Shown: positions 2,899 to 24,001 of the stretch, in pieces | Layout: each line of letters starts with the position of its first letter | Numbering within the stretch: position 1 is the stretch's first letter | Source of the DNA: a virus | Taxonomy: Duplodnaviria > Heunggongvirae > Uroviricota > Caudoviricetes | Strand: one strand, 5' to 3' | Length of the DNA: 64,000 bases | IMG/VR virus record: IMGVR_UViG_2823670853_000002 | Notes under the pieces: generated by a model | Databases searched by the model: none | The model's input: only the letters and a program-made list of their open reading frames with translations | What the model was told of the DNA's origin: nothing | Translations under genes and position numbers: made by a program

Positions 2899-4818
2899 AT
2901 GGAACAGTTCAATATCAATAAAGGGGTGACGATCAAGCCTGGGCTTGACGTGCTTCCCCCGCCAGTGACTGATGATGAATATCGCGCATTAATGGCCGGT
3001 GAGGACCGCTATCTGATGACGGAATCCAACACCCTGGAGGAAATCGAGGCTACGTTCTTCTATGACACGCCGATCCACTGGTGTGCTACGGATTTACTGG
3101 AGGCGATTAGTTCTACTCGTTTGCAGTTACACCGGGCCATGCAGGCATTTGTCCGGGCATTGAACCAGAAGCTGAATGGTACCGGAATCTCTGCGGGGAG
3201 TGATAAAACGGGGGATGTGGCCCAGAGCGGCGCGCGCGCGATCGGCGGCGCTGAAATTGGCCGGGCACGTAACGTTAACGGGCTGCCGGTCTTGCCAGCC
3301 ATTATTCCGCTCAGTGATGGTCAGACTATCAGCATTCTGTTTCATAGCCCGACAGCGGAAAACCGGATCACCAATAGCGATACGCTGGTTGCTTTCCAGT
3401 TCTTACTGAATAAAAAAGACGTTACTCACACCGTTGCTCCGATGAGTGGACGTGATATGACGCTGGCGCAGGTCACCATGAAACTTGCCAACCTTGCAGA
3501 GAAAAACTCGGCAAAATTCCAGCGTGCGCAGAAGAAGAAAAAAGCCCTTGTTGATGAAATAACCCAACTACAGGCTGACAGTGACCAGAAAGAGGATGCC
3601 ATGAGCGACCTCGCGGATCAGGTGGCAGCGGTAGAAGGGCAGAAGGCAGATCTGGAGCAGAAAATTAACGCTGTTGCATCGGAAGCGGATTCTCTTTATG
3701 AAGAGAATGAGCGTTTGCAGACGGAGATTGATCAGCTCAATCGCACTGGTGGGCGCGATACCATTGCTCCAGCGGGGATGACTGGTGGGCACTCTCGCGC
3801 GCTGACGGATCGCCTTGCCAGTATCAAAAATCGTATGCATATGGACGGGGAAGTGACGCTCAGTAATGGTGCATCAATGAAGCAATTCATTGGGGGCGGC
3901 GAAGGGTATATCCAGTTAACCGATCCGGATGGCAGCGTATACATGATCAAGGCTAAATCCATACAGGGTGTGGACATGGCAGATGCGATCGGCAAGCTGT
4001 TTAAAGCCTATAAAGCGGGTAATGTATCGGAATACCTGGTCCAACCAGAAGAACATAAACCGGAAAACGTCGAACCTGAACCAGCGGAGGATACCGGTAG
4101 CTCTTCGCCTGAACCAGAAGTCTCTGTAGGTGCATATCGATATGCCCTGCAAATGCGTCCGGCGGCCCCTGGCGCAATACCTGAAGGTAACAAAGCAATT
4201 CTGCCGCGCCCTGATGAAGGTGACCCGTATTATGAATATGCACGCTACGGCATTGCTACTTACGATACCCCGCTTTCTGATCAGCAAATGAGTGAGTACG
4301 ACCTGAAGTTATTGCCTCGCGAGGATTCTTTCGACTTCCTGGCGAAGACACTTACTAATGGTCCGTTTGGCAAATATTCACAAAAAGCTCTGGAGCTGGC
4401 CACCAGCTCACCAGACGAGTTCCGCGTAATGCTGAAAACTCAGTTTCAAAAAACTTTCCCCAATATTGCGTTTCCTGGGGGCGCTGGCACCGAGAAAATG
4501 GTGCAGAGCATGATCAATGCATTGCAGGCCGAAGTCGGTGAGATTCCTCAGCCAGAACCGGCCCCGGCACAGCCTGATGAAACGGTTAGCGAAGCAGATG
4601 CAGAGGCTAATAAAGCCATTGAATATCTCAATAACGTGATGGATATACAAAGCACTGACATGGCGGAGATCCGTAACGCCCGGGGCAATGTCCGGGAAGC
4701 GATTGCAGCCCTTCAGGCTGCCGGACGTTTTGAGGAAAACGAAGAGCTGGTTAACGGCGCAGCTCGCCACCTGGCTGATCTGTTGGTAGCAATCCAGAAA
4801 GCGGGGGTAGCGGCATGA
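2899..4818 (+). CDS. darA: DarA antirestriction internal head protein
   Basis: 639-aa ORF, the size reported for P1 DarA, in the expected operon position. Confidence 0.75.
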   Translation: MEQFNINKGVTIKPGLDVLPPPVTDDEYRALMAGEDRYLMTESNTLEEIEATFFYDTPIHWCATDLLEAISSTRLQLHRAMQAFVRALNQKLNGTGISAGSDKTGDVAQSGARAIGGAEIGRARNVNGLPVLPAIIPLSDGQTISILFHSPTAENRITNSDTLVAFQFLLNKKDVTHTVAPMSGRDMTLAQVTMKLANLAEKNSAKFQRAQKKKKALVDEITQLQADSDQKEDAMSDLADQVAAVEGQKADLEQKINAVASEADSLYEENERLQTEIDQLNRTGGRDTIAPAGMTGGHSRALTDRLASIKNRMHMDGEVTLSNGASMKQFIGGGEGYIQLTDPDGSVYMIKAKSIQGVDMADAIGKLFKAYKAGNVSEYLVQPEEHKPENVEPEPAEDTGSSSPEPEVSVGAYRYALQMRPAAPGAIPEGNKAILPRPDEGDPYYEYARYGIATYDTPLSDQQMSEYDLKLLPREDSFDFLAKTLTNGPFGKYSQKALELATSSPDEFRVMLKTQFQKTFPNIAFPGGAGTEKMVQSMINALQAEVGEIPQPEPAPAQPDETVSEADAEANKAIEYLNNVMDIQSTDMAEIRNARGNVREAIAALQAAGRFEENEELVNGAARHLADLLVAIQKAGVAA

Positions 4819-5192: not shown

Positions 5193-8180
5193 ATGAGCTT
5201 AAGCGATCAGGTGGTAATGGCCACCAGCATAGAAACGCTGATCGAGCTGCTAAAGAACCTGCCCGATTATGGGCGGGTTTCGTATGTGGTGACAGCGAAG
5301 GGAGACGAGGTAAAAACAGCGTTTGATATCGTCGATGCCTCAGCTCTTTTGGTATCCAATACTCTGGATGGGAAAATTAATCCTGACTATCCCCAGGAAC
5401 TTCAGCCGCGCGACCGGACCCGCGCATCCAGCCTTCTTCAGGTTAACCAGATATCCAAAGATTTGCGGCCAGCTCAGCTTACTGATTCCGGTTTATCCAG
5501 CCATGGTGCGCCAATAATTGGTGAGGACAATGCCGTTGAGTCAGGTAATGGGCGGACCATGGGGATCATTAAAGCCTATCAGGACGGTAATGCGGATCGG
5601 TATCGGGAGTACCTGATTGAACATGCGACCGAATTCGGCATACGGCCTGAAAAGGTTGAATCAATGACGGCTCCGGTACTGGTGCGCCGCCGGTTAACGA
5701 AGGTTGACCGTGTTCAGTTTGCCAAGGACTCAAATATTTCTGATCTCCAGGAAATGGCAGCCAGTGAAAAGGCTTTTGTTGATGCCGACAGCATAACACC
5801 GGCGATGATGGCGTTGTTTAACCCGTCAGAAAGTGGAGATCTGCTTAGCCGCAGTAATGACGCGTTTATTCGCGGATTTATGACGCAAGTTGGTGCCACA
5901 CAGGCGGCTGGCCTTGTAACTGAAGATGGGCGACCAACACGGCAACTTGTAGACCGTATACAAAACGCGATCTTTGCCAAGGCATATAAGGATGCGCGCC
6001 TGGTAAGGATGGTTGCAGAAGAACCTGATCCGGATATGCGTAATGTTCTGACGGCGCTTAATGCGGCAGCCAATGATTTTGTCCAGATGCAGGCTTTATC
6101 AGGAGAAGCGCACAAGCAGGCTGTGACAACTATTGTTGATGGCATTGAGACAGCGGATAGCCTCGATAAAAAGGCGCTGGCGGCATTGAAAGATGCGGTA
6201 GACCTGGTAAGGCAATCGAAGGAGTCAGGCCAGCATATTACCGATGTTATTGCTCAGGGGGATATGTTCAGCGAAACGGCCCCGGAAGTGAAAGCACTCG
6301 CGTTGTTCATCGTCGCGAATAACCGTAGCGCGAAGCGTATGGCCACCGCCTTTAAGTTGATGGCTCAACGTATCAATGATGAGTTACAGCACCAGGGCCA
6401 GGCGCTGGGGGATATGTTTGGCGGCGGCGATGTGTCGTTACAGGATATCCTTCGCCAGGTGTCTCAGGAACTGGAAAACGAAGGCATGCAAGGGATATCC
6501 GGCGGTCTTTTCGAGTCCGTTTCCGGCGGTAGTTACAACGGTGTTGCTCCGTATACCAGTTTGCTATTACATCGGGCATCCGGCATCAAAGACATTATTC
6601 ATCTGATCAGGCTGCTTTCCCGCACAGATCCCCAGGATGAACAGCTTGTACAAGTGCTTGCGCATTTTGTTCGAATGCCTGTTGCCGACGTGAAAAAATG
6701 GTGCCGATTATTCGGTATCAGCAATTCGTTACTTCGCGGCTTGTTAAATCACGCATCCTCCCTTGGGCGCGATGGCTTTGACGAGATAGCGCAGGCGATA
6801 AAAAACGGAGATATGCCACCAGCTATTGACTGGTTTTCCATTCGCCCAACCAGGGTGAAAGCATTCCTTAGCGCGGCGCATTCGGCATCACCATTGGCAG
6901 AAATGGTTCAGAGGTTGTCGCTCATATTCACAGACCATACCGCGTTGGTTGATCTGACTCTGGACGAGATGAAAGAAGCCTCCATTCAGTGGGCCGATCG
7001 ACAAAATGAGGTTAACTCAGACTTCTTGCCAGCATTCAGGAAGGCCGTTAGTAAAGCGGATGATGCCCGTGGAATTCTGAAGGCATTTAAGGCATTGCAA
7101 AGTCGTGTTAATAAACATGTCGGTGATATCGATGGGGTAACGGCGGAAGGCCGGGATATTCTTAAAGAGCACGGCATAACGCCAGAGTTTATTGATGAGA
7201 TCAGGACTGATATGCAGCGTGAGGTCGTATCGTCCCTGCAAATCGTAGCCAGAGCGTTGGCGGATGCTAATCCGAAGAGTGCGGCCATTGTTAACCGGGT
7301 TATTGGTGATATTGAAGCATCGGAGGGCATGGGGGCGCTGAAACTCTTCCTTTCGCGAGCGTTTAATCCTAACGGCAATATTCTCCCTGGCATTATTGGT
7401 GAGGCTAAAAAGTATGTCAGTGAAGAAGAGCTTGAGCAGCTTGACCAACTACTTAAGCGATTCTCATATAACCCGCAGATACGCTGGCAAATGAATCAGC
7501 GAAGTATGGGTTCGGTCCACGAGAAAGTGTTATCTGCCATGAACAGTGCGATCGCAAACTCATCCGTATCTGAAGAAAAAGCTCTTGAGTGGGCCGACTC
7601 TTTTATCACAGAAGAAGTGGAAGAAGTCCGCGCTGGACAGAATGGTGGGATAGACCTGCGCAAGGAACTTGCTGATATTTATCGCCTGACCGGCGGGAAA
7701 ATATCGACCTTATCAAAGGTAGTTCACCACCAGGGAAGGGCATATGCAAATCTTAATGGTGTTGTTGCTGTCAATTTGAACGATGAAAATGCAAGTGCAC
7801 TGTGGCACGAGCTGGGTCATCATCTTGAGTACAGTAACCCTGGTTTGTTAGAGAAAGCCCGGTCATTCCTGAAGTCCAATGTTGAAGGGGATAAGCCATC
7901 TTTCGTCAATATCGGTGGGCGTGGCAAGCCTGAATGGTGCTTCAGATCTCGATTGAGTAATATTTATATGGCGAAGGTATACCCGCCAGCCTCAGTAAGT
8001 AACACCGGGAAAATTCGGCAGAAATCACCGACTATTTCCAAAACGTCAGCAACGGAAGTATTCTCTATGGCTCTTCAGTTGTATCATGACAAAGAGGCCG
8101 CTGCCGCATCACTGATGAATGGTGACGGATTGCTGGAACTGTTATTAGGTGTGGCAAAGGAGCTAAATAATGCAGATTAA
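5193..8180 (+). CDS. ddrB: DdrB, large Dar-operon protein with HExxH motif
   Basis: 995-aa ORF; contains LWHELGHHLEY (zincin-like HExxH); synteny with P1 ddrB. Confidence 0.6.
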   Translation: MSLSDQVVMATSIETLIELLKNLPDYGRVSYVVTAKGDEVKTAFDIVDASALLVSNTLDGKINPDYPQELQPRDRTRASSLLQVNQISKDLRPAQLTDSGLSSHGAPIIGEDNAVESGNGRTMGIIKAYQDGNADRYREYLIEHATEFGIRPEKVESMTAPVLVRRRLTKVDRVQFAKDSNISDLQEMAASEKAFVDADSITPAMMALFNPSESGDLLSRSNDAFIRGFMTQVGATQAAGLVTEDGRPTRQLVDRIQNAIFAKAYKDARLVRMVAEEPDPDMRNVLTALNAAANDFVQMQALSGEAHKQAVTTIVDGIETADSLDKKALAALKDAVDLVRQSKESGQHITDVIAQGDMFSETAPEVKALALFIVANNRSAKRMATAFKLMAQRINDELQHQGQALGDMFGGGDVSLQDILRQVSQELENEGMQGISGGLFESVSGGSYNGVAPYTSLLLHRASGIKDIIHLIRLLSRTDPQDEQLVQVLAHFVRMPVADVKKWCRLFGISNSLLRGLLNHASSLGRDGFDEIAQAIKNGDMPPAIDWFSIRPTRVKAFLSAAHSASPLAEMVQRLSLIFTDHTALVDLTLDEMKEASIQWADRQNEVNSDFLPAFRKAVSKADDARGILKAFKALQSRVNKHVGDIDGVTAEGRDILKEHGITPEFIDEIRTDMQREVVSSLQIVARALADANPKSAAIVNRVIGDIEASEGMGALKLFLSRAFNPNGNILPGIIGEAKKYVSEEELEQLDQLLKRFSYNPQIRWQMNQRSMGSVHEKVLSAMNSAIANSSVSEEKALEWADSFITEEVEEVRAGQNGGIDLRKELADIYRLTGGKISTLSKVVHHQGRAYANLNGVVAVNLNDENASALWHELGHHLEYSNPGLLEKARSFLKSNVEGDKPSFVNIGGRGKPEWCFRSRLSNIYMAKVYPPASVSNTGKIRQKSPTISKTSATEVFSMALQLYHDKEAAAASLMNGDGLLELLLGVAKELNNAD

Positions 8181-8478
8181 AATCGCAGCGCCATTAGGTG
8201 GAGATGCCATTATCGAATTTGATGATAATGAAGAAGTTTCCGGGCGTTTAAGCATTATCTCCGGTGACATTACCGAGGACATGATCGCTGAAGCCATAGC
8301 TGGGGCAAATCCCAATAGCTATATGGGATTCGTTAACACCCTTGATGCTCCCGCAAGTGATGTTCTCCGAACGCTGCATCTTTACGCTGGCTGGTTTGTT
8401 GATTGGCCAGCAGTAGATGGTGGCGATGAGGACGACGACGATGATTTTGGTGATCATGTAGACCAGATCGTATATTGA
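8170..8478 (+). CDS. hypothetical acidic protein (last gene of darA operon)
   Basis: 102-aa ORF overlapping the ddrB end, Asp/Glu-rich C-terminus, followed by a terminator. Confidence 0.4.
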   Translation: MQIKIAAPLGGDAIIEFDDNEEVSGRLSIISGDITEDMIAEAIAGANPNSYMGFVNTLDAPASDVLRTLHLYAGWFVDWPAVDGGDEDDDDDFGDHVDQIVY

Positions 8479-8481
8479 AGA

Positions 8482-8510
8482 AATCCCGCCACTCGGCGGG
8501 ATTTTTTTTA
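8482..8510 (+). terminator. rho-independent terminator of the darA operon
   Basis: AATCCCGCC-ACTC-GGCGGGATT hairpin followed by a T8 run. Confidence 0.65.
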
Positions 8511-9290
8511 ATCGCTTTCCACTTCTTCCGTGGTGTTTTCTTGCAGTTCTGTTAATGCAGCACGACATAGGTTCCGGGCATTGGCTATAGCCACACTTTT
8601 GACTTCATCCGTCATCGTGCAGGTAATGTACTGATCGAGTTCTTCAGCGCGGATGATGCTTTTGCCAATCAGAAACTGTATTTGCCAGAGCAGATCGGCA
8701 TCCATAATCAGAATTTCTGCCGGGCCTTCAGGGCCAGCCGGGAAGGAAACATAAGACTGTTTGCCCAGGCCGACAACTCGACAACTTGCTTCAAGAATTG
8801 CGCGCTTGAGGTCTGACTTTATAACGGAAACAGGTTGATTTTCACCAGTGATTACGCCGTTGACATGGAAAGGCATGTAGCTTGAAATACGCTCCACTTT
8901 CCACACGCCAGCAAGCGATCCTTCATGCAGCACAATGGGGGTAACCGCGAGTTTCATCTCACCATATAGCTGCTGGCAGATAGCTGGATTGCTGAATACA
9001 TCTAAAGGCTCACATTCAAACAGCGGCGCAATCTGCATGAGGTCCATCATGGTCATCCCTGGGGTACGAGCAGTAATGAATCTGCGCATACCAGTATCCA
9101 TTGCGCTCCAGATTGCTACACCATGCTTTTTGCTCACTTCTTCAGTAAAGCCAAGGTGGCACATGATGGTTTTTTCGATAGCCAGATCAGAGATCGAAAC
9201 CTTTTCGCCAGGCACACCATCATTATTGATGGTCACTTCGACACTCTGACCATTACGCAGGCGGTATTGAATTGCTTTAGTATTTTCCAC
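8508..9290 (-). CDS. hypothetical protein (third gene of ssb operon)
   Basis: 260-aa ORF with acidic C-terminal tail; GTG start with GGAG RBS; unknown function. Confidence 0.5.
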   Translation of the reverse strand: MENTKAIQYRLRNGQSVEVTINNDGVPGEKVSISDLAIEKTIMCHLGFTEEVSKKHGVAIWSAMDTGMRRFITARTPGMTMMDLMQIAPLFECEPLDVFSNPAICQQLYGEMKLAVTPIVLHEGSLAGVWKVERISSYMPFHVNGVITGENQPVSVIKSDLKRAILEASCRVVGLGKQSYVSFPAGPEGPAEILIMDADLLWQIQFLIGKSIIRAEELDQYITCTMTDEVKSVAIANARNLCRAALTELQENTTEEVESD

Positions 9291-9296
9291 GTTAAA

Positions 9297-9974
9297 TCAC
9301 TCCACTACAAACCAGTCACATGCCAGTAAGTCGCCTACAGAAGGAACCCACGGAACAACTACACCTTGTGCATTTTTTAAGGCGAAATAAGCACCATACG
9401 GAACGAGGTCGCCGGGGAAATATCCCTTAATGGCTTCCATTCGTGCCGGGTACTGTCCTTCAGGAACCAGCCAGCAGAATTGGTTTTCGCCGTTCCACCC
9501 GCGTCGAGCAACTTTCTTGCCATCCTTCAGCCACATCAGCGCGTCAGAAAAGTCGGCTGCTTCAAGGTCGATTTCTTCTTGTGTGGTAATGATGCCACTG
9601 GCAGCAATAGTTACGTCCCTGGCTGTAATGAATGTCACCCCATTGTGACCTTCAATACTGAGCGATACCCCATTTTCGAAGAAGTCGTTAGTCCGACTAA
9701 AGCCTTCTTCAAATGTTTTTTCTGGTGAATAGGACAGAGATCCGTCCTCATAAGCGACCAGATATCCGCCAATTTCTGGTCGGTGTTTTTGCAAAAACAT
9801 TTTATCAACATGGACTTTTACCCCTTCTGGCTCAACGACTTCGATGTTGCAAAAAAGGACCACATCCATTAGGGCGATAATTTCGATATCTTTGATTTTT
9901 GAGGCGCGAACTGTTTTATGGCTTTTGTATTTTGGAAGTGCCGTCAAAAGCTCTTTCGTTGTCATGTTATTCAT
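9297..9974 (-). CDS. DUF2829 (Tad2-like) domain protein
   Basis: C-terminal 85 aa (FSDALMWLKDGKKVARRGWNGEN...VVVPWVPSVGDLLACDWFVVE) matches the DUF2829 signature; start at MNNMTTK with GAGGAAAG RBS (track ORF extends to 10142 from a GTG). Confidence 0.55.
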   Translation of the reverse strand: MNNMTTKELLTALPKYKSHKTVRASKIKDIEIIALMDVVLFCNIEVVEPEGVKVHVDKMFLQKHRPEIGGYLVAYEDGSLSYSPEKTFEEGFSRTNDFFENGVSLSIEGHNGVTFITARDVTIAASGIITTQEEIDLEAADFSDALMWLKDGKKVARRGWNGENQFCWLVPEGQYPARMEAIKGYFPGDLVPYGAYFALKNAQGVVVPWVPSVGDLLACDWFVVE

Positions 9975-10171
9975 AGTCTTTCCTCTGCTTAAAACCTGAT
10001 GTATTGCGCCTTCAGGTGGGTCAGGAATGTTTTCCCACCAGCGAAAGCAATATCTCGGGGTGTTCTTTTCGTGAAAAGCGCGTGCCATTGCCAACTTTGG
10101 CGTTTGTTTGCGAGTTCGTGCTTTTGTCGGCGTCTGGACCACCGCTTTTCTTTCAGTCGTTTTTTACACAT

Positions 10172-10660
10172 TCAAAACGGAATATCGTCGTCAAAGTCCA
10201 TTGGAGGTTCGTTATTGGCGTTGCTCTGAGGTTTACCGCCACCACTGTATTGCTGGTGGTTTTGAGGTTGGTTTGATTGCCCCCAGCCATTTGAGGACTG
10301 TGAATCGTCACGGCGAGCGCCGATCATTTGCATGGTGCCGCCCTGGCTGACGATAATTTCCGTCGTGTAACGTTCTACACCGGCGTCATCTGTCCACTTA
10401 CGGGTTTTAAGTTTCCCTTCGATGTAGACCTGAGAACCTTTTCGTAAATACTCACTCGCAATTTCAGCAAGTTTTCCGAACAAAACGACTTTATGCCATT
10501 CTGTTTGCTCTTTCTGTTGGCCCGTTTGCTTGTCCCGCCATGATTCATTCGTTGCGATGCTGAGTCTTCCGACCGCGCCGCCATTTGGTATATACCTGAT
10601 CTCCGGGTCTTGCCCCAGGGTACCAATCAGGATGACTTTGTTTACACCGCGTTGTGCCAC
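10172..10660 (-). CDS. ssb: single-stranded DNA-binding protein
   Basis: [23 protein letters not shown]... with acidic C-terminus DFDDDIPF; canonical SSB. Confidence 0.93.
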
Positions 10661-10679
10661 TTATCTTACCTAATAAAAT

Positions 10680-10696
10680 AAATTAATTAGAGCAAT
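10680..10696 (-). promoter_or_regulatory. C1 repressor operator upstream of ssb
   Basis: Reverse strand reads ATTGCTCTAATTAATTT, 16/17 to the P1 C1 operator consensus. Confidence 0.55.
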
Positions 10697-10829
10697 AATG
10701 TATATCTTTGAAACGTAGCTAACAAGTGATTTGCATTATCCTGTGCCTTCTAAAGGGATCGAGTCAGTCGGTATTGGCTGTGAATGGGTGTTTGTCCTGG
10801 AGCGTAAAAAATTCGCTTATGAGGTCTTT

Positions 10830-11387
10830 ATGAAGGGAAAAACAGCCGCAGGAGGCGGTGCAATTTGCGCTATCGCGGTGATGATTACCATCGTGATGGG
10901 TAATGGCAATGTGCGAACCAACCAGGCGGGGCTTGAGCTGATTGGTAACGCTGAAGGTTGCCGACGTGATCCATACATGTGCCCGGCAGGGGTATGGACT
11001 GACGGGATCGGTAATACACACGGGGTAACGCCGGGTGTGCGAAAAACAGACCAGCAAATCGCCGCTGATTGGGAAAAGAATATCCTGATCGCTGAACGCT
11101 GTATTAATCAGCACTTCCGGGGCAAAGACATGCCCGATAATGCCTTCAGTGCAATGACAAGCGCGGCATTCAATATGGGATGCAATAGCTTACGGACCTA
11201 CTACAGCAAAGCGCGAGGCATGCGAGTAGAAACGTCCATCCACAAGTGGGCGCAGAAAGGGGAATGGGTGAATATGTGTAACCATCTCCCTGATTTCGTG
11301 AACAGTAACGGCGTGCCCCTGCGAGGTTTAAAGATTCGCCGTGAAAAAGAACGCCAGCTTTGCCTGACGGGACTGGTCAATGAATAA
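10830..11387 (+). CDS. lyz: SAR endolysin Lyz (lysozyme with N-terminal signal-anchor-release domain)
   Basis: 185-aa protein MKGKTAAGGGAICAIAVMITIV... followed by a lysozyme domain; matches P1 Lyz. Confidence 0.9.
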   Translation: MKGKTAAGGGAICAIAVMITIVMGNGNVRTNQAGLELIGNAEGCRRDPYMCPAGVWTDGIGNTHGVTPGVRKTDQQIAADWEKNILIAERCINQHFRGKDMPDNAFSAMTSAAFNMGCNSLRTYYSKARGMRVETSIHKWAQKGEWVNMCNHLPDFVNSNGVPLRGLKIRREKERQLCLTGLVNE

Positions 11388-11634
11388 ACTCCGGCAGCTC
11401 CGCCGACTTTCGACAATGAAGTTATCGTTGGCGGCGATAGTTTTCGACTCGATTTTCATGGCGGTATATGTGCTCAATGAGACGTGGCCACTGGAACCGC
11501 TATTGTATGCCGGGCTTCGGCTGTGCCTGACATTTTTGAGCATGGCTGCAAGATTGATGCAGCAGAAAGAAACCGCTTCAGATTGTCCACGCCGCGCGGT
11601 GCGCAAATATATGGCACGCAGGCGAAGGCGATAA
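11380..11634 (+). CDS. hypothetical membrane protein overlapping lyz stop
   Basis: 84-aa ORF with an N-terminal hydrophobic segment and Arg-rich tail; ATG overlaps the lyz stop; terminator follows. Confidence 0.3.
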   Translation: MNKLRQLRRLSTMKLSLAAIVFDSIFMAVYVLNETWPLEPLLYAGLRLCLTFLSMAARLMQQKETASDCPRRAVRKYMARRRRR

Positions 11635-14475: not shown

Positions 14476-17400
14476 ATGAACAAGCTATCTATGGGGGTGT
14501 TTCGCTGTTCAAGTGTCAGCGAAATATTGAAATACATTAGGGCAATAACATCTCACCGAGCGCCGATTAAATACGGCGTGGAAAAGGTGGAAGGCAAAAG
14601 CTATGACCGACTGCGCCGGGAGGCGAATCAGAAGGCGATAGATTTGCTTAATTCGCTGGTGGACGGCGCGACACTGACAGATGAACAGCGCCAGATCCTG
14701 GCTGGGTACACCGGTGAAGGCGGCATTGGCGGGTCCGTCTCCGAATATTACACACCAAAGCCGATCGCTGAAGGTGTCTGGGAGATCATGAAGCTCTACG
14801 GCGCGGACGTAGGTAACACTCTGGAACCATCGGCGGGCACCGGCGTTTTTAATGAGACAAAACCGGTTGGTACGGTGATGACTGCGACTGAGATCAGCAG
14901 TGTTTCCGGTCGTATAAACCAGCTGTTACACCCGGAAGACAGCGTACAGATTTCCCCGTTCGAACAGCTGGCTGTAAGCACGCCTAACGATTCATTCGAC
15001 CATGTTGTGGGTAACGTTCCGTTCGGTGGTCGTGATAACACACGCAACATCGATAAGCCTTACGCAGAAGAAACGGACATGGGTTCTTACTTCATGCTCC
15101 GCATGCTGGACAAGATAAAGCCAGGCGGATTCATGTGCGTGATTGTGCCGCCGTCCATTGTTTCAGGTTCAAACATGAAGCGGTTACGCCTGCGCCTATC
15201 ACGGAAAGCTGAATTTCTTGGTGCTCACCGCTTGCCTACCGGTACTTTTGACGCAAACGGGACCAGTACAGTCGTTGATGTGGTGCTGATGCGCAAACAT
15301 CCGGCAGAGATGGCTGAGAAAATCCCCCTGGTGGATGAAAGCACTCTTGAATCGGCAAATGTGCTTTGGCCAACGTTTATTTCTGGCAAGTGGTTTGAAA
15401 AGGACGGTCGCCGGTTTGTTCATGGCACCCAGGAGAAGGGATTCCAGGGGCGTATTGAGGTTCGTGCCGACGGGCAGATTGATAACCAGGCTCTTAAAGC
15501 GAAGCTGATTCATCGTTTCGAAAGTCGTATCGACTGGTCTTTGCTCAATATGGCTGAACCGTCACCGACCGCAGACGTTGTTGATGAAGGGGAAATGCGC
15601 CTGATTAATGGCGTATGGCAAAAATATGCTGGTGGTCGCTGGATTGAATCTGATGCAGGGAAGGAGCTGAAGATTGATGTTGCCAGTTATGGCGCGGACA
15701 GCTGGGAGGCTCTTCAGCGTAACCTGACTACAACAGAAGGCCGTCTCGGTATGACATTTACCCAGATGGCAAATGTCCGCGATAAGTACACCACATCAAT
15801 CAGCGACGATATGGTGCAGCTGGTGGACTGGATTAACAGCCAGCCTGAAAAATACCGTGAACGCTTGTATCGCGGGGCGATGATTGGCCGGATGTTAATT
15901 GAATATCAGGACATGAAGGCCGCCGGGCATAGTGCTGAACAAATCGAACAGCAGCGCCTTTCTCTGGTATCCCGTTTGCAGGCAGAGATTGACCGTTTTG
16001 GTAACCCCGGTCGCGGTCCGATAGCGAAATTATCGGGGAGCGGTGCGCGCGCCTGGTTTGCTTTCCGTGGTGCAATTAAGCTGGATGGCACTATTTCTGA
16101 CGAGCTGACAGGAAAACTGGTTACGCATGATTCCAGCGCCAGTTATGACTCCACCAGCTATCAGGACACCCTGCGTTATCTCTACAGTGATCTCACTCGC
16201 GATCCAATCCAGCTCGATGATTTCCGCCTTGCGTTTACCGGCGAACTGCCAGCCAGTGATGACGAGTTGCTTAATTTATTGGCCAGCACCCCTGGCATTG
16301 CGGTTTCACCGTATGGCGGGATTGTTCCGTTCGCCCGCGCCACCAGCGGCGACATTAACGAGATAGTGGCACCAAAACAGGAATTCCTTGCCACACTCCC
16401 CGACGGTCCAGTAAAGAACAACGTCCTTAATCAGCTGGCAGCGATCGAAGAGAAGCGCATCAAGACGCCAGCAGAGAATATCCGCTTTAAGCTCAATAGC
16501 CGTTGGTTCGACCGTTCCGTCATTCTGGAATTTTTGCAGGAAAACGGCTATCCGGATCTTCGCTATGTGCAGTCAGTGCAGCTGGAAGGCGACGAAATGG
16601 TTTCTGACACCTATCACGGTGGTGATGGTCTGTTCGTCGGGCACCGATACGGTGTCGTCCAGCGCAAGGATAAAGAAACAGGCGAGATCCGCTACGAGTG
16701 GGACCGTAAATCAGGTGAAAACGCGACCGGGTTCCCGGCACAGCTGGAAAAGTATCTCAATGGTGCGCGTATCGGTGGCAAAGATAGCGCGACGGCGAAC
16801 GGCTACCGCGAGCAGATGGCACTGCTTGAGGACCAGTTCAATAAGTGGATCAAGACGCACGATCGCTACGATGAACTGGTTGCCAAATACAACGATGTGT
16901 TCAATAGCAATATCCCGTATGAACACTCTGGCGATCCGCTTGGGTTGAAGGGATTAAGCGGTAAGCGCCAGCCATTTGATTACCAGAATAGCGAAGTGCG
17001 CCGACTGTCCGAAGATGGGCGCGGCATCCTGGGCTTCGGCACCGGGCTGGGTAAAACTACGACCGCGCTGGCGCTTGAAGCGTTCAACTATGAGAACGGT
17101 CGCTCCACCCGTACTGCGTATGTAGTGCCTAAATCAGTGCTGGAAAACTGGTATTACGAAGCAAAAGAATTCCTGAGTGAAGAGGCATTCAGTAACTACC
17201 TGTTCGTCGGTCTTGATGTGCTGATGGATGGCGATCAGATTCGCCAGGTGCCGGTGCTCGATGAGAACGGTAAACCTGTTCTTGGTACTGATGGCACTCC
17301 AGTTATGCGCGATGCCCTAAAACTGGCAGATGAAGCCACTATCACGGCGCGGATGAACGCGATCCCGCACTCAAATTACCGTGCAGTCGTGTTTACCAAA

Positions 17401-20400
17401 GAACAATACGCCCGCATTCCGCTACGTGATGACACCGTAGATGAGCATGCACAGGATATGCTTTATGACTTCGTTGCCGCCGGGCGCGTAGCCAGCGCAA
17501 TGGACTCCGACTCCCACCGCAAAGAGGCCGCGCGTCGCCGGGTATTGTCGGAGTATTCAGATACCGGCACCGAAAAAGCAGAGAAGTATCCGTACTTTGA
17601 GGATATGGGCTTCGATAGTGTGATCGCTGACGAAGGTCACAACTACCGCAATAGCTATAAAAATGGTCGCGAAGCGTCACAACTGGCCTATCTGCCCACC
17701 AGCGCGGTGGCGCAATCGGCGCGGGATATGGCAATTAAAAACGCGTACCTGATGAAAAAGAATGGTGGGCGCGGACCGGTTCTCCTGACTGCAACGCCAG
17801 TCGTTAACACCCCGATCGATGCATACAACATGCTTTCTCATGTGCTGCCGAAGGAATACTGGCAGAAGATGGGGATCTACGGTCCTGATGACTTCGTTAA
17901 ATTCTTCGGCAAGACCAGGCTGGAAACGGTACAGAAAATCAGCGGTGAAGTTGAAGAAAAAATGGCGCTGGTGGGCTTTGAAAACCTTGATGCGCTGCGC
18001 GGCATATTCCATCGCTGGACAACGCTTAAAACGGCGGAAGACGTTAAGGATACCGTGGAGATCCCGGAACTGGACGAGCACCAGCAGGATGCACCACTTA
18101 CTGAAGAACAACTGGCGGCGTATGAAGAATTACGTCAGCAGGCGGAAGCGGCAGCAAAAGCCAACAATGGCGTAACGACCTCGGTCAATGAAGACGGCGT
18201 GATTGAGCACGAGAAAGCCCGTCCGATCTTCTCAATAATCAGGGATATGGACCGCGTATGTACTGACATGGACCTGTACTATCGCCGGATCACCTATCGT
18301 TTCCTGCCGGAGTACGCCGATGCGGTGCAGCAGCTGGCGGACAGTTTGCCTAAACAAGCCACCAGCGAAGACGACGACAGTGATGATTCAATCACGCAGC
18401 AATCGCAATACTCCCTGATAGATAAGGGCGAGTTTATTCAGTTGCAGGTTCCGGAAGCGTTCGAGCAGGAAGTGAATAAGCGCCTGGCCAGGTTTGGCAT
18501 TGACGAACAGACCGTAACTCACCCCGTTACGCCGAAATACGCGAAGCTGATCGCCACGCTGAAGGAGTTTTTCCCGGAAGGGAAGCAAATCATCTTCACC
18601 GACGAAAAAACGCAGCACCAGAAGCTCAAACGCATTATCTGCAATGCTCTTAACCTTGAACCTTCAAAGGTAGGGATCCTGAATGCTCAGACGGTTGCCG
18701 AGGCAGGTAAAACCGGTAAGAAACTGAAAGCGGTTAAACCGCCGAAAGAGTTACCGGATGAACCAACAGATGCACAGATAGCGAAATACAACGAGCAAAT
18801 GGCTCTGTATGACGCCTATATCGCGCAGCAAAATGAAATGTCGCTGGGTGGGCTGGAAAAGATTGCTGCCGACTTCCAGGAGGGCCGGACTCCGATCATC
18901 ATCTGCAACAAAAAGGCAGAGGTGGGTATCAACCTGCATCGAGGAACGACTGACATCCATCATCTGACGTTGCCATGGACACCAGCCAGTATCGCACAGC
19001 GTAACGGTCGCGGTGCCCGAGTTGGTTCCAACCGTGCAAGCGTTCGCGTTCACTACTACTGCGGCAAGGGTTCTTTCGATGAATACCGACTGAAGACGCT
19101 GAAGCGTAAAGCAGGCTGGATCTCCGATATCCTCCGCTCAGATAAGTCTGAAATGGAGAACGCCGACGCCAACGATATGATCGAAATGCAGATGTATACC
19201 GCTAAGGATGATGGCGAACGTCTGGCAATGATGCAGGTTCAAATGGATAAGGCGAAAGCCGCGCAACGCGCTCGCCAGAAAGAACAGGCTACTATCGACC
19301 TTCAGAACTACATCAAGGCGCAGCACGCAGCTGGCGAGGATGTGGAGGTACTTACCGCTGAATTAGAGCGAAGCAAAGCGGAACTTGAAAAGACCACCGC
19401 CGAGGTAGCTAAATTCAAACAGGCGGTAATGGCCAAAGCAGCTGATAACGCAGACTGGAAGGCCCGCTGGGGGAGCGTCCATCACACAGACCGTATGTTG
19501 TTAGCACAGTATCGCGCGTCGTTGAAAAACGCCATTCAGCGCAAGGCTAATATCTCTCAAGCCATCTCCCGCTATGAGAAATTATTGAACCGTACTCAGA
19601 AGGCCGCGACGGATATCAAACGCCTGCGCCCGCTGGTGGAGGATGCAATAAATAAAGGCATTCTGGATGTTGATCCTGACCTGGTTAACCATGCGAGTGA
19701 GTTCCTTGTTATCGGCGATCGCTCATGGCGTGTAGGCCAATACTACGATTGTGCCGGTGATATCGTTCGCATTAAGTCGCTGGACTTCGACAGCCAGCGC
19801 GCAGACGTGGAGATCATCTTTACCTTCAAAGGCACCAAATCGGGTAACTGGGATGTGAAGACGCTGGATAAACAGGTGGATGTAACTCCCGATGAAGATG
19901 CTGTTATGCAGAAAATCAGTGGTGGCGTCTCCATCGCCGGGATTAACGACATCATTTCCTGTGACGATTTCTACCGTTTCCAGCAGCGCGGCATGATCAA
20001 AATAACTGACTCGTACGGCGTTCAGACTACAGAGTCAGGCTATAGCATTGATTTTGTTGGTACCTATACGGACCCACTGAAGCATGCGGTTTACCCGGAT
20101 CGCCGTGACGGCGCGCTGAAGTCGTCAATTGCAAAATGGGTGCTTGGTATGATGTCGGAAGGGAATAACCGCCAGATCCGTTCGGCAGAAACATTCCTGG
20201 TTGAATTGTTTGGCTCCAATTATGGCGATGTAATCGCGTCATACGGAGATACGCTATCCCCTGAAGCAATTCAGGAGAAAATAGCGGATGCGATCGCCAG
20301 AATGCCGGAAAAAACAAGCCAGGGGGCTACTCGTAACGGGGATTCTGAACTTGAAGTCACCAATGCCATTTTCGGTACCAATGAGTTCCGGGCGTCAGAT

Positions 20401-21243
20401 TATGAGATCACCACAGCACAGTTTGGCACCATTGGCATTTACAGCAATAAAGCCGAGATCAAGCAGGCAATGGACGCAGCAAGCGCGCGCATCGCAGCAG
20501 AACGGGAAGCCAATCTGAATCATGCAGTCGCCGCGCTGACTCAATCGTGGGTAACAGCAATCAGGGAGGCCGCCACCACAGGGAAAATCACACCTGCAAT
20601 AGCGGATGTCGTAAACAACGGCTCTAAATTTATGGATGCCTATCAAATGGATGCGGTGAAGTTGCCATCAGCCTATGGTCAACTCAGCTATCGCATGACC
20701 TACAACCTGGTATCAATGTTTTCCGACCTTGCCATCCTTGGGCTGGTGGATCTTAACGAGGTTACGCCGGAATTGCTCAGCATGCGCAAGAATCATGTGG
20801 AGATATTGCAGAGAATTAACACGGTTCTTGCCGGGCGCACCGATGAAGAGAAACAGGCCGACGCTGATCGGATAAACCTAACCCTTGGCAACATCACGGA
20901 GGAAGAGATTGCCGCCAGAAACGAGAAACAAGAAGAGTTATCATCAATACAGGGTGATGCCACCAGCATAGCTCAGTCTCTTGGTCTGAATTATCGCGTA
21001 TCCACCGCCGACCTGAAGATGATGTACGCACCAAAATTCGCCGCTGGCGAGGTATTTGGGCTTCAGGAAGCCTCAGGCATGAAAGGCGTTCTTTTCCGTG
21101 CGAAAGACGCAATCAAGGCGAAATTCGGCGCTCGCTGGCTGCCAGCGAAGGCGAAGAACAGCGATTTCCCGGGTAACTGGTGGATTATCGAGACAAAACA
21201 CAACGTGGCGGACGTTCTGGCCGTCATCCAACAATACGCATAA
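14476..21243 (+). CDS. darB: DarB antirestriction protein (N6-adenine methyltransferase plus SF2 helicase domains)
   Basis: 2255-aa ORF; NVPFGG methyltransferase motif and DEGH helicase motif; size and context match P1 DarB. Confidence 0.9.
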   Translation: MNKLSMGVFRCSSVSEILKYIRAITSHRAPIKYGVEKVEGKSYDRLRREANQKAIDLLNSLVDGATLTDEQRQILAGYTGEGGIGGSVSEYYTPKPIAEGVWEIMKLYGADVGNTLEPSAGTGVFNETKPVGTVMTATEISSVSGRINQLLHPEDSVQISPFEQLAVSTPNDSFDHVVGNVPFGGRDNTRNIDKPYAEETDMGSYFMLRMLDKIKPGGFMCVIVPPSIVSGSNMKRLRLRLSRKAEFLGAHRLPTGTFDANGTSTVVDVVLMRKHPAEMAEKIPLVDESTLESANVLWPTFISGKWFEKDGRRFVHGTQEKGFQGRIEVRADGQIDNQALKAKLIHRFESRIDWSLLNMAEPSPTADVVDEGEMRLINGVWQKYAGGRWIESDAGKELKIDVASYGADSWEALQRNLTTTEGRLGMTFTQMANVRDKYTTSISDDMVQLVDWINSQPEKYRERLYRGAMIGRMLIEYQDMKAAGHSAEQIEQQRLSLVSRLQAEIDRFGNPGRGPIAKLSGSGARAWFAFRGAIKLDGTISDELTGKLVTHDSSASYDSTSYQDTLRYLYSDLTRDPIQLDDFRLAFTGELPASDDELLNLLASTPGIAVSPYGGIVPFARATSGDINEIVAPKQEFLATLPDGPVKNNVLNQLAAIEEKRIKTPAENIRFKLNSRWFDRSVILEFLQENGYPDLRYVQSVQLEGDEMVSDTYHGGDGLFVGHRYGVVQRKDKETGEIRYEWDRKSGENATGFPAQLEKYLNGARIGGKDSATANGYREQMALLEDQFNKWIKTHDRYDELVAKYNDVFNSNIPYEHSGDPLGLKGLSGKRQPFDYQNSEVRRLSEDGRGILGFGTGLGKTTTALALEAFNYENGRSTRTAYVVPKSVLENWYYEAKEFLSEEAFSNYLFVGLDVLMDGDQIRQVPVLDENGKPVLGTDGTPVMRDALKLADEATITARMNAIPHSNYRAVVFTKEQYARIPLRDDTVDEHAQDMLYDFVAAGRVASAMDSDSHRKEAARRRVLSEYSDTGTEKAEKYPYFEDMGFDSVIADEGHNYRNSYKNGREASQLAYLPTSAVAQSARDMAIKNAYLMKKNGGRGPVLLTATPVVNTPIDAYNMLSHVLPKEYWQKMGIYGPDDFVKFFGKTRLETVQKISGEVEEKMALVGFENLDALRGIFHRWTTLKTAEDVKDTVEIPELDEHQQDAPLTEEQLAAYEELRQQAEAAAKANNGVTTSVNEDGVIEHEKARPIFSIIRDMDRVCTDMDLYYRRITYRFLPEYADAVQQLADSLPKQATSEDDDSDDSITQQSQYSLIDKGEFIQLQVPEAFEQEVNKRLARFGIDEQTVTHPVTPKYAKLIATLKEFFPEGKQIIFTDEKTQHQKLKRIICNALNLEPSKVGILNAQTVAEAGKTGKKLKAVKPPKELPDEPTDAQIAKYNEQMALYDAYIAQQNEMSLGGLEKIAADFQEGRTPIIICNKKAEVGINLHRGTTDIHHLTLPWTPASIAQRNGRGARVGSNRASVRVHYYCGKGSFDEYRLKTLKRKAGWISDILRSDKSEMENADANDMIEMQMYTAKDDGERLAMMQVQMDKAKAAQRARQKEQATIDLQNYIKAQHAAGEDVEVLTAELERSKAELEKTTAEVAKFKQAVMAKAADNADWKARWGSVHHTDRMLLAQYRASLKNAIQRKANISQAISRYEKLLNRTQKAATDIKRLRPLVEDAINKGILDVDPDLVNHASEFLVIGDRSWRVGQYYDCAGDIVRIKSLDFDSQRADVEIIFTFKGTKSGNWDVKTLDKQVDVTPDEDAVMQKISGGVSIAGINDIISCDDFYRFQQRGMIKITDSYGVQTTESGYSIDFVGTYTDPLKHAVYPDRRDGALKSSIAKWVLGMMSEGNNRQIRSAETFLVELFGSNYGDVIASYGDTLSPEAIQEKIADAIARMPEKTSQGATRNGDSELEVTNAIFGTNEFRASDYEITTAQFGTIGIYSNKAEIKQAMDAASARIAAEREANLNHAVAALTQSWVTAIREAATTGKITPAIADVVNNGSKFMDAYQMDAVKLPSAYGQLSYRMTYNLVSMFSDLAILGLVDLNEVTPELLSMRKNHVEILQRINTVLAGRTDEEKQADADRINLTLGNITEEEIAARNEKQEELSSIQGDATSIAQSLGLNYRVSTADLKMMYAPKFAAGEVFGLQEASGMKGVLFRAKDAIKAKFGARWLPAKAKNSDFPGNWWIIETKHNVADVLAVIQQYA

Positions 21244-21276
21244 CAGGAGCGCCCGGTTCGCCGGGCGTCGCATAAT

Positions 21277-21717
21277 ATGGCCACACTATCTGATACAATA
21301 AAACCGAATAAAACATATCTTGAGGCGGTACTCCGTACAGCGTTGTTAGGAAAGACAGAAGACGAATACGTTGATTTCTTCCTGTCAGGGCTACGCGGGC
21401 GATTACTGAAAAATCCCCGCCTGTACCGCAGCTATGGTCCATACTGGCCGGAAATTAAAAAATTATTACTGGAGCGCGGTTATGGTAATTTCGGTCGTCT
21501 CGTTGACCGTGACGTTCGCAAAATTTACCGTTATGACCGCCCGGCGCTAACACTCATAGCCGCGACGCTCTACAGCCAGGAGCGTTTTGATAATGGTCAG
21601 ATATACTCAGCCTGGCATTTACTGCCAGTGCCTGAAGAAGTTGACGACCAGGACTATGAGTTTGAGTCTTACGATTTGGAAGTTGAAGCCTTGGCACAGG
21701 CTGGAGAGAAAACTTGA
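21277..21717 (+). CDS. ulx: Ulx
   Basis: 146-aa ORF between darB and lxc; synteny. Confidence 0.5.
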   Translation: MATLSDTIKPNKTYLEAVLRTALLGKTEDEYVDFFLSGLRGRLLKNPRLYRSYGPYWPEIKKLLLERGYGNFGRLVDRDVRKIYRYDRPALTLIAATLYSQERFDNGQIYSAWHLLPVPEEVDDQDYEFESYDLEVEALAQAGEKT

Positions 21718-21962
21718 AAAAGCGATACTACACAGTAAAGCATGGGACGCTACGAGCATTACAAGAGTTTGCTGACAAGCATAACGTTGAGGTGCGCAGG
21801 GAAGGGGGAAGTAAAGCTCTGCGCATGTACCGTCCGGACGGGAAATGGCGTACGGTCGTCGATTTCAAAACTAACAGTGTTCCCCAGGGCGTCCGCGATC
21901 GGGCATTCGAAGAATGGGAGCAGATCATCATAGATAACGCATTGCTCCTGAATGCTGATTAA
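21714..21962 (+). CDS. lxc: Lxc/Bof C1 co-repressor
   Basis: 82-aa ORF with apparent TTG start after GGAGAG, consistent with the known 82-aa Bof with TTG initiation. Confidence 0.65.
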   Translation: MKKRYYTVKHGTLRALQEFADKHNVEVRREGGSKALRMYRPDGKWRTVVDFKTNSVPQGVRDRAFEEWEQIIIDNALLLNAD

Positions 21963-22001
21963 ACTTTCCGCCCTTTTGCCCGGTCTATCGCCGGGCATCT
22001 T

Positions 22002-22643
22002 TCAGAGATAATTACCTTTACCTGTCAATTCCCCTTGTGGTACTTGTTTTTGCGCCAGTGTTTGGGTTCCGCGAATTATGTTAATCAGAGGGCTTAGTAA
22101 CGATGGTTCCTGGCGTGCCTCAACTTCTCCAGCCATTGCCCTGATGTAGTCGGAGCTTGCAACGTTGTTGTATTCCGTTGCGAAGCAGCATAACAACGTC
22201 AGAACGTGCTCTGTCGTTATTTCGCTCCAGTTGATGTTGAAAAATTCATCGCCTTTTTTATCGTGTTCGGAATCGAAGATGCTTTGGTGGAGGATGTATT
22301 TGCCGGATTCCTTGCGCGGTAACTTGATCGCTTTCTGGCGTTCCAGCTCCTTGTAAATCTGCATTGCTTCAATCAGTACCGGCCTGCCGTTCATGAAGGG
22401 ATCGCGCAACCTTACACGCTGGCCAACTCGACCAGTAATAAAGCTGTTTTCCTCTTCCACCAGCACGATAAAACCCTTTTCCTCTTTTTCTCGCAATTCG
22501 CGCAGCAGCTGGAGTTCCATATCGCGGCGGCGTTCAGGGTAGCTGGTCCGCTCAGCCATTATTAGCTCATTGTTGATCCATGCGGCAGTCATTGACGCCG
22601 GTTTGCCGACGCTCATCGAAACAACGCATATTTTCTTATCCAT
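22002..22643 (-). CDS. mat: Mat-like protein (by synteny with P1 mat)
   Basis: ORF between lxc and ref; start taken at MDKKICVV with AGGGG RBS (track start 22670). Confidence 0.45.
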   Translation of the reverse strand: MDKKICVVSMSVGKPASMTAAWINNELIMAERTSYPERRRDMELQLLRELREKEEKGFIVLVEEENSFITGRVGQRVRLRDPFMNGRPVLIEAMQIYKELERQKAIKLPRKESGKYILHQSIFDSEHDKKGDEFFNINWSEITTEHVLTLLCCFATEYNNVASSDYIRAMAGEVEARQEPSLLSPLINIIRGTQTLAQKQVPQGELTGKGNYL

Positions 22644-22831
22644 AGCGCCCCTACAAAAAAGAAAAGCCACCAGCGGCGGCTTAGCAATACAACTGAAGGT
22701 AGCGCCCGGTACTCAGACTGTGCCGTCCATGGAATATTTGAAAAGGGATCCATCCGTACCGGGCATGTGATGATTCTGACTGAAGTCACTTGTCAGTTGT
22801 CAATTATTTCAGATTAAAAATAATATATTTA

Positions 22832-23392
22832 TTAGTGCATGATGTTTGCCATCTCATAGGCGTCAGCCAGCAACTCCATCTCTGACTTGTTCAGCAAGGT
22901 GAATTCTTTCTTGCCTCCAACCACACCATCGGCATGAACAGGGACCAGCCAGGGGTATTTTTCTCTTACTTCAGCCGGTGCTGCATGCTGGTGGTGCCAT
23001 CTACAAAGGGGCAATTGCTTTTTGTGACAACCCGGCGCGGTACGACCGGAGATATGGTGCAGAGATACCTCTCCAGATATTACTCCATGCATGTAGCAGG
23101 CAATGCAGGGGAGAGCGCCAAGAGCATTGGCGATGCGCCGTTCCTCCGCCGTTGGTGTTCTCCCCTTCAAGCCACGAGATTTTATTTTTACCGCGCTTTT
23201 CCGCGTTTTGCTGGCTGGTGGGCGCTCTTTCTGTTTAGCGATACGGCGGTCGATAGAATCCCGCATTTTCTGATATTGCGATTCTCGCCAGGCGGGGTCA
23301 GCCAACTTTTCCCGTTGCCGAGCGATCGCTCGTTCTCTGGCTGCCTTCTGCCACTCGCGGCGCTGTTCAAGTTTTTGTTCGATTGTTTTCAT
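22832..23392 (-). CDS. ref: Ref recombination enhancement function (HNH endonuclease)
   Basis: 186 aa; HNH-like Cys/His cluster (CIACYMHG...HHISGR...CHKK...CRWHH); matches P1 Ref. Confidence 0.85.
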   Translation of the reverse strand: MKTIEQKLEQRREWQKAARERAIARQREKLADPAWRESQYQKMRDSIDRRIAKQKERPPASKTRKSAVKIKSRGLKGRTPTAEERRIANALGALPCIACYMHGVISGEVSLHHISGRTAPGCHKKQLPLCRWHHQHAAPAEVREKYPWLVPVHADGVVGGKKEFTLLNKSEMELLADAYEMANIMH

Positions 23393-23397
23393 ATGGC

Positions 23398-23424
23398 AAA
23401 AAAAAAGGCGGCCTAATGGCCGCC
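23398..23424 (-). terminator. hairpin plus U-run on the minus strand immediately upstream of ref start
   Basis: GGCGGCC-ATTA-GGCCGCC followed by T9 on the minus strand; may terminate read-through from the cre side or act as an attenuator. Confidence 0.45.
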
Positions 23425-23481
23425 AATGATGTCAAGGAGTTAAGTAATGGCAACGTCTTCGTAGTTGACAAAAACTGCGGC

Positions 23482-23508
23482 TTAATTATAGCAATCAATT
23501 AGAGCAAT
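23482..23508 (-). promoter_or_regulatory. tandem C1 operator-like sites upstream of ref
   Basis: ATTGCTCTAATTGATTG and overlapping ATTGCTATAATTAA on the minus strand; ref is C1-controlled in P1. Confidence 0.5.
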
Positions 23509-23574
23509 GGTAGGTATTTTGTTAATCGCGAATCACATTTTTTCACTTCAGTACCTGTGTGCTATACTCCTTCT

Positions 23575-23641
23575 TGATTGATTGGATGCGGAATACAAAC
23601 CCGCTCTTTTGTGCAGCCTGGCTCCTTGCCAGGCTTTTTTT
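23575..23641 (+). ncRNA. candidate small RNA (promoter-like -35/-10 plus intrinsic terminator)
   Basis: TTCACT...TATACT promoter-like elements, then GCCTGGC-TCCTT-GCCAGGC hairpin plus T7; no ORF explains it. Confidence 0.2.
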
Positions 23642-23951: not shown

Positions 23952-23967
23952 GTGTCACCATAAATAT

Positions 23968-23984
23968 CAAATAATTAGAGCAAT
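23968..23984 (-). promoter_or_regulatory. C1 operator-like site
   Basis: Minus strand ATTGCTCTAATTATTTG. Confidence 0.45.
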
Positions 23985-24001
23985 CAGTTGCAAATAAACG
24001 G

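Follow-up and report, generated by a model that had tools for sequence, protein, structure and literature searches.

A candidate counter-defence gene with Dec-like and Tad2-like domains in the ssb operon of a P1-like phage-plasmid

What might be the function of a gene that lies between ssb and isaA in some P1-like phage-plasmids and is absent from laboratory P1? The question is raised by IMG/VR virus record IMGVR_UViG_2823670853_000002 (Caudoviricetes), of which the stretch of 64,000 nucleotides (nt) analysed here as a whole is referred to as the window. The window represents a P1-like (Punavirus) phage-plasmid with about 99% identity to Salmonella phage SJ46 across 8000-11500. On its minus strand, an operator for the C1 repressor is followed by ssb, a gene for a protein of 225 amino acids (aa) and a gene for a 260-aa protein, an order given in a preliminary description of this DNA and verified here in both coordinates and strand. 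The 225-aa gene (9297-9974, minus strand) begins at an ATG at 9974, with a GAGGA ribosome-binding site (RBS) upstream, and ends with a stop codon at 9297-9299. Its product joins an OB-fold domain related to the decoration protein Dec of phage L to a Tad2-like domain (DUF2829, PF11195). The results suggested that this is probably an early, accessory counter-defence protein, the Tad2 domain of which would sequester an immune signal derived from ADP-ribose (ADPR) and possibly also a cyclic mononucleotide signal, and that the 260-aa protein, IsaA, is its co-inherited partner.

The Tad2-like domain and its putative ligand pocket

A DUF2829 signature in the C-terminal region of the protein had been pointed out in the preliminary description, and the Pfam search bore this out. 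The PF11195 profile matched residues 141-224 (9303-9554, minus strand) over profile positions 2-73 of 73 and scored 80.3 bits, well above the cut-off of 25 bits (E=1.6e-22), so that, by profile comparison, the DUF2829 assignment is far beyond chance and membership in PF11195 is established. Among the sequences of the Protein Data Bank (PDB), the top matches were to ModTad2 (9EIB and 8V3E, E=8e-21), followed by HgmTad2/AcrIIA7, SPO1 Tad2 and SptTad2 with E values of 1e-9 to 1e-12. The alignment with ModTad2 showed 45% identity over 89 residues with a single 1-aa gap. Judged by sequence similarity, the nearest solved relatives of the domain are thus validated sponges. ModTad2, also called MoTad2, comes from a prophage of Myroides odoratus and sequesters His-ADPR of type II Thoeris, 2'cADPR of type VI Thoeris, and cUMP and cCMP of Pycsar. 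The domain in the window resembles it over the whole length, including the GWNG and W-x-P-S-x-x-D motifs and an extended region after strand beta2, while ModTad2 is a stand-alone protein of 89 aa and the protein studied here carries a Dec-like extension of 135 aa and a loop which is hypervariable among the P1-like alleles.

The presence of AcrIIA7/HgmTad2 (8KBI, 9KZR) among these matches, at E=4e-10 to 1e-9, raises the alternative that the gene encodes an anti-CRISPR of the AcrIIA7 type acting on Cas9, since AcrIIA7 itself belongs to the DUF2829 proteins and has been reported both to inhibit Cas9 and to bind cyclic dinucleotides. The two proteins share the DUF2829 fold, and the one in 9KZR is likewise extended at its N-terminus, by about 43 aa; however, the match is much weaker than that to ModTad2 (43 vs 75 bits), the loop insertion of AcrIIA7 is much longer and its host context is a different one. 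The CRISPR-Cas systems of E. coli and Salmonella, in which P1-like elements reside, are of type I, type II not being known there, which further counts against Cas9 as the target. We regard an action on Cas9 as extremely improbable.

To describe the pocket, the contacts between SPO1 Tad2 and gcADPR were used, rather than the contacts between ModTad2 and His-ADPR. SPO1 Tad2 (gp34.65; 8SME, 8SMF and 8SMG), the founding member of PF11195, contacts 1''-3' gcADPR through W25, N26, W73 and D79, and S76 is among its water-coordinating residues (bioRxiv 2023.05.01.538930). In the HMMER alignment W25, N26, W73, S76 and D79 corresponded to W160, N161, W209, S212 and D215 of the protein in the window, and W160, W209, S212 and D215 were invariant in a 38-member family alignment, in which helix alpha1 and the C-terminal WxPSVGDLLACDW motif were also nearly invariant. 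The two proteins therefore have the fold family (E=1e-9) and the core gcADPR contacts in common, while SPO1 Tad2 differs in adenine-side and water-coordinating residues, has no insertion after beta2, is a single-domain protein and comes from a Bacillus phage.

Variation in the family was concentrated elsewhere. The central loop of the Tad2 domain, residues 170-198 (9381-9467, minus strand), was hypervariable, with at least four allelic forms in the alignment of P1-like elements, and the family as a whole was mosaic, the N-terminal domain, the linker and the Tad2 loop each occurring in several alleles which are variously combined. In ModTad2, the insertion after beta2 forms an additional pocket (bioRxiv 2024.01.03.573942). 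As far as the alignments go, the combination of mosaic alleles with a hypervariable loop in the part that shapes the second pocket is the signature of an arms race, and the loop alleles offer a ready series for a study of ligand specificity.

The function that we propose, which builds on the signal sponge suggested in the preliminary description, would proceed as follows. The 225-aa protein would be made early, from the C1-repressed ssb promoter, upon entry into a C1-free cell or upon induction of a lysogen. We infer that the Tad2 domain at its C-terminus most probably forms the oligomer that is usual for Tad2, and that this oligomer would soak up a nucleotide-derived immune signal before the host effector is activated. 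By nearest homology, the signal may be an ADP-ribose derivative (His-ADPR or 2'cADPR), or possibly cyclic pyrimidine mononucleotides, and the outcome would be a blunting of Thoeris-type and perhaps Pycsar-type defences. The Dec-like OB domain would be a separate portable module which might add another anti-defence activity, serve as a scaffold for oligomerisation or provide targeting, and IsaA would be inherited along with the Tad2 protein. Phage P1 has been used in an assay in which MoTad2 overcomes Pycsar of E. coli (bioRxiv 2025.08.24.671296, Fig. S2A legend), and the P1 sequence GenBank AF234172, which was used in a related preprint of that group, is without a Tad2 gene.

Several points weigh against this function. 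Residues on the adenine side of the pocket are changed relative to SPO1 Tad2 (T78 to G214, H71 to V207, D67 to Q203 and T65 to N201), and the identity of the ligand is thus not readable from the sequence. In the sponge screen of bioRxiv 2025.08.24.671296, the largest so far, 19 of the 84 sponge homologs inhibited none of the seven systems tested, which means that homology guarantees neither activity nor ligand, and proteins with a 6E3C (Dec) or PF21825 domain were dropped from the same screen. Known sponges are mostly smaller than 100 aa, and Tad2 proteins form homotetramers via helix alpha1, with their pockets where the protomers meet, so that an extension of 135 aa right before alpha1 might disturb the assembly. 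The only characterised relative of the N-terminal domain is a virion decoration protein. As to size, the protein has 225 aa against about 90 aa for the typical stand-alone members of the family, and working multi-domain Tad2 fusions are known.

The Dec-like OB domain and its fusion partners

The preliminary description had set the Tad2-like region apart from an uncharacterised N-terminal domain of 140 aa. The extension is present, at about 135 aa, but it does have a recognisable relative, namely Dec of phage L (6E3C). The OB-fold core at residues 10-95 (9690-9947, minus strand) is homologous to the OB domain of Dec by sequence-profile similarity. It is followed by a variable linker at residues 96-135 (9570-9689, minus strand), which occurs in at least two allelic types in the family and has predicted local distance difference test (pLDDT) scores of 47-53. 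In the hidden Markov model (HMM) alignment the linker aligned with residues 90-127 of Dec, the spike-forming tail, a region modelled here at a pLDDT of about 50.

The relationship with Dec suggests another explanation, in which the protein is associated with the virion, the Dec-like part binding the capsid, as Dec does on phage L and P22, and displaying the DUF2829 domain in a structural or adhesive role instead of an intracellular one as a sponge. Residues K30, Y31, Y49, Y71 and E73 of Dec have been mutated to probe capsid binding (PMC6449081), and none of the five is kept in the protein studied here, where the corresponding residues are E31, I32, H55, D77 and S79; this mismatch is weak evidence because the capsid of P1 differs from that of P22 and L. 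Dec itself has a trimeric beta-helix spike at its C-terminus and attaches to P22 and L capsids, whereas the present protein ends in a Tad2 domain, its linker model is of low confidence, and its gene sits in the C1-controlled, probably early ssb operon and not in a late morphogenetic operon. In addition, the SopranoGao, Dolphis and Bas106 homologs have small early, regulatory or moron-type genes as neighbours, and the OB module is found fused to a gp5.9-like RecBCD inhibitor and to Sequestin, both of which work in the cytoplasm. A virion role is accordingly judged to be quite improbable.

SopranoGao gp55 (OB plus Tad2) sits among regulators, Dolphis gp96 among small genes, and Bas106 gp70 (95 aa, OB only) comes after lysis and Rha genes; at every locus examined the OB-module homologs were in accessory or early regions and not in head modules. 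The module occurred alone (79-117 aa), in tandem, with Tad2, as OB+OB+Tad2, as OB+Tad2+PF21825 (proteins P0064, P0099, P0110 and P0113), as OB+PF21825, and with a gp5.9-like domain. The last arrangement is that of metagenomic protein P0175 (171 aa), in which a Dec-like OB domain at residues 16-107 precedes a RecBCD inhibitor domain of the T7 gp5.9 type (PF25708) at residues 113-152, and which ties the module to an anti-defence payload other than a sponge.

PF21825 is Sequestin, a sponge for 3'cADPR that was discovered through its fusion to Tad2 and Acb4, and fusions of Tad2 with Acb4 inhibit Thoeris as well as CBASS (bioRxiv 2025.07.12.664507). The protein in the window resembles Tad2-Acb4 of Pasteurella phage Pm86 and the Tad2-Sequestin proteins in that Tad2 is joined to a second portable phage module; unlike them, it has neither Sequestin nor Acb4, its partner being an OB fold for which there is no Pfam model. 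The fusion survey of that preprint queried Pfam, and the OB module escaped it for want of such a model, while in the sponge screen the module was filtered out as '6E3C'. The module nevertheless fits the 'guilt by fusion' argument by which Sequestin was found, because it is short, phage-specific, often stand-alone and repeatedly fused to counter-defence domains. We therefore raise, as a tentative idea which we rate as possible but doubtful, that the Dec-like OB domain is itself a portable anti-defence module, either a new sponge or inhibitor or a device for targeting or pre-positioning its payload, in which case the protein in the window would have two functions and Dec-Tad2 together with IsaA would make up a mobile anti-defence cassette.

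Cassette structure, distribution and linkage to isaA

The longest open reading frame (ORF) of the gene has 281 aa and starts from a GTG at 10142, and this start is used in the annotation of SJ46. The shorter form is favoured by three lines of evidence. The leader, the RBS and the ATG at 9974 are common to the window, SJ46 and P1, and in P1 they are used for isaA, whose codons MTAQNTKTIQYRLRNG come next directly. The homologs from NCBI and from metagenomes are 211-233 aa in length and start with MNNM at the ATG. The 56-codon extension from GTG 10142 had no PHROG match and was preceded by a weak RBS. On these grounds the 281-aa reading was rejected and the 225-aa form taken as the gene; by the same argument, the IsaA annotated in P1 with 320 aa is over-extended.

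The leader itself (9975-10171, minus strand), as defined by the alignment of the window, P1 and SJ46, spans 197 nt from ssb to the next gene with the GAGGA RBS at its end, and in P1 it precedes isaA. As an RNA element it gave no match in Rfam and a folding z-score of -1.0. The segment 9297-9970 of the window has no counterpart in P1, where isaA follows the shared ATG directly; since the same leader, RBS and ATG start isaA in P1, the 225-aa gene is a precise cassette. In P7, similarity to the window ends at the end of ssb. The insertion site is within RD-2 (isaA-IS1-isaB), a documented variable region and recombination hot-spot of P1-like plasmids (PMC6906374). P1 and the window thus share an isaA ortholog and the same leader, while in P1 isaA comes directly after the leader, with IS1 and isaB as flanking elements, and in the window the Tad2 cassette comes first and both IS1 and isaB are absent. 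The distance from the hxr stop to the isaA stop in the window is only 29 nt (8479-8507), where P1 has isaB and IS1 (L002 1789-3500). Weak leader-like Rfam matches on the plus strand at 8382-8512 are probably due to a hairpin of the terminator type, situated between the convergent genes hxr and isaA.

The prevalence of the gene was determined in 5,426 complete E. coli genomes. The P1-type ssb locus was present in 497 of these, isaA in 378 and the DUF2829 gene in 213, the last with at least 80% coverage in 179 of the 213 genomes, and 213 of the 220 occurrences of the DUF2829 gene were on plasmids. In D6/P7-like elements, a Dec-Tad2 gene was also found at a second locus, by cre and dUTPase. In its distribution across these genomes the 225-aa gene behaves as an accessory gene.

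The preliminary description knew of no such function in the P1 family. This stands as far as the literature searched is concerned, in which no paper linked Tad2 with P1-like phages, but the genes do carry public labels, 'DUF2829 domain-containing protein' in RefSeq and, for some members in UniRef, 'Thoeris anti-defense Tad2 family'. In NCBIfam, none of the 225-aa protein, IsaA and Hxr is covered by a model. The domain family, its mechanism and the public DUF2829 annotation were thus already known; the cassette polymorphism relative to laboratory P1 and its prevalence, the Dec-like module with its fusion network, the series of loop alleles and the Dec-Tad2/IsaA pair are new.

P1 has long served as a model phage. 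Its phage-plasmid relatives are frequent in E. coli and Salmonella from clinical and animal sources, and the counter-defence known for them is the injected Dar anti-restriction system. If the gene does encode a sponge, an inhibitor of signalling immunity which laboratory P1 lacks would be present in about 40% of natural P1-like elements. This would affect the prediction of host range, the way in which resistance genes are transduced and the choice of laboratory P1 as a tester for Thoeris, Pycsar and CBASS, and multi-domain sponges could be studied in a natural example. The OB module and IsaA, for their part, show where further counter-defence functions might be sought.

The last gene of the operon, at 8508-9290 on the minus strand, starts 6 nt past the stop codon of the 225-aa gene, and its 260-aa product is the ortholog of P1 IsaA (YP_006486), with 93.8% nucleotide identity to P1 isaA and assignment to phrog_2326. 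The protein had been described as acidic, in agreement with its isoelectric point of 4.93, and had been put forward as a second anti-defence factor. The latter suggestion did not hold up so well: searches with IsaA returned no informative fold match and no homology support for an anti-defence role, and what is left in its favour is the conserved linkage to the Tad2 gene.

This linkage extends to the second locus. The order in the D6/P7-like elements is c1, cre, two small genes, dUTPase (in L007 and L008, but not in L006) and Dec-Tad2, and an IsaA homolog (HMM E=1e-81 to 1e-102) comes directly after Dec-Tad2 in L007 and L008, whereas in L006 one gene lies between them. The linkage is thus kept despite the other location and only about 45-50% protein identity. 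IsaA is also found without a Tad2 gene, as in P1, and it was not found near OB-Tad2 genes outside the P1 group in the SopranoGao, Dolphis and Bas106 loci. Read from gene order and sequence comparison, the linkage is evidence of co-inheritance and not of a specific function. In L006, an Enterobacter-associated P1-like contig, the ORF between Dec-Tad2 and the IsaA homolog (5573-6238) has 221 aa and no recorded domain.

A stronger interpretation would make IsaA a working anti-defence component or an obligate partner of the Tad2 protein, for instance a chaperone, regulator or second inhibitor, with the pair as one unit. This interpretation overlaps with the function proposed above. It is favoured by the occurrence of the homologs behind Dec-Tad2 (next to it in SJ46, L007, L008 and the window, one gene away in L006) despite their divergence, by the 6-nt spacing and the acidic nature of the protein, and by the small size of the family, members of which were seen at the loci examined only in P1-like elements. 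We consider it unlikely, and keep to the reading of IsaA as a co-inherited partner of a Tad2-type sponge.

The neighbours of the gene also bear on whether the domain serves counter-defence at all. In the D6/P7-like elements the dUTPase gene is directly upstream of Dec-Tad2 (L007 4504-5642, with a 4-nt overlap; L008 3808-4994), and in protein P0056 (241 aa) dUTPase and Tad2 are fused directly, with no OB domain. Together with the linkage to ssb in the window, and with the roughly one quarter of tested sponge homologs which had no target among the seven defence systems, this would fit a Tad2-like domain whose ligand is a cellular nucleotide or metabolite and whose role lies outside counter-defence, such as the tuning of replication or of nucleotide pools. 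However, all characterised PF11195 members bind immune signals or inhibit defence; the presence/absence polymorphism, the mosaic alleles and the fusion partners are typical of anti-defence genes; and ssb and isaA of the P1 operon are non-essential by CRISPR interference (PMC10695390). A role outside counter-defence thus appears distinctly unlikely, and sequestration of an immune signal is still the preferred function. Downstream of Dec-Tad2 and IsaA in the D6-like element (L008 5810-6613; L009 1283-2086), a gene for a Fic-domain protein, a PhdYeFM antitoxin gene and then a Peptidase_S24 repressor-like gene were observed, a group which looks like another accessory cluster.

Probable C1 control of the operon, and neighbouring genes

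The operator of the ssb operon (Ossb/Op21; 10680-10696, minus strand) overlaps the ssb promoters and reads ATTGCTCTAATTAATTT, which departs from the C1 consensus at one position and is an exact copy of the annotated Ossb/Op21 of P1. With up to 3 mismatches allowed over the whole window, 15 C1-operator-like sites were seen, compared with 0.21 expected by chance. Some of these sites were closely spaced or overlapping pairs on opposite strands (e.g., 25529-25628, 45040-45105 and 58768-58795), the pattern expected for P1 immunity regions. The first gene of the operon, ssb (10172-10660, minus strand), matched the Pfam SSB profile with E=7e-40 and the NCBIfam model PRK09010 with 272 bits, and showed about 97-99% nucleotide identity to ssb of P1.

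A scan of 8300-10900 for the sigma-70 consensus found no promoter, and the promoter assignment therefore relies on identity to the annotated P1ssb, P2ssb and Op21 of P1. No terminator-like sites were found on the minus strand between the genes of the operon. A position of the 225-aa gene in an early operon is suggested by the identity of the operator with Op21 of P1, the lack of an internal terminator and the start of isaA only 6 nt past the preceding stop. Early co-expression with ssb under C1 control, as had been suggested for this gene, thus fits the sequence.

On one side the operon is flanked by darA (2899-4818), ddrB (5193-8180) and hxr, and on the other by lyz, pro, prt and darB (14476-21243), the dar and ddr genes being anti-restriction genes of P1, a neighbourhood that speaks for the counter-defence role proposed above. 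Between darB and a cre-like integrase gene (24002-25033) there is only about 2.8 kb (21243-24002), and the EcoP1I res-mod region of about 6 kb, which in P1 forms the known variable region RD-1, appears to be missing or replaced here. The lyz ORF (10731-11387, plus strand) has 218 aa when read from a TTG, compared with an annotated length of 558 nt (185 aa) in P1 and 645 nt in SJ46, and the true lyz start is probably a downstream ATG.

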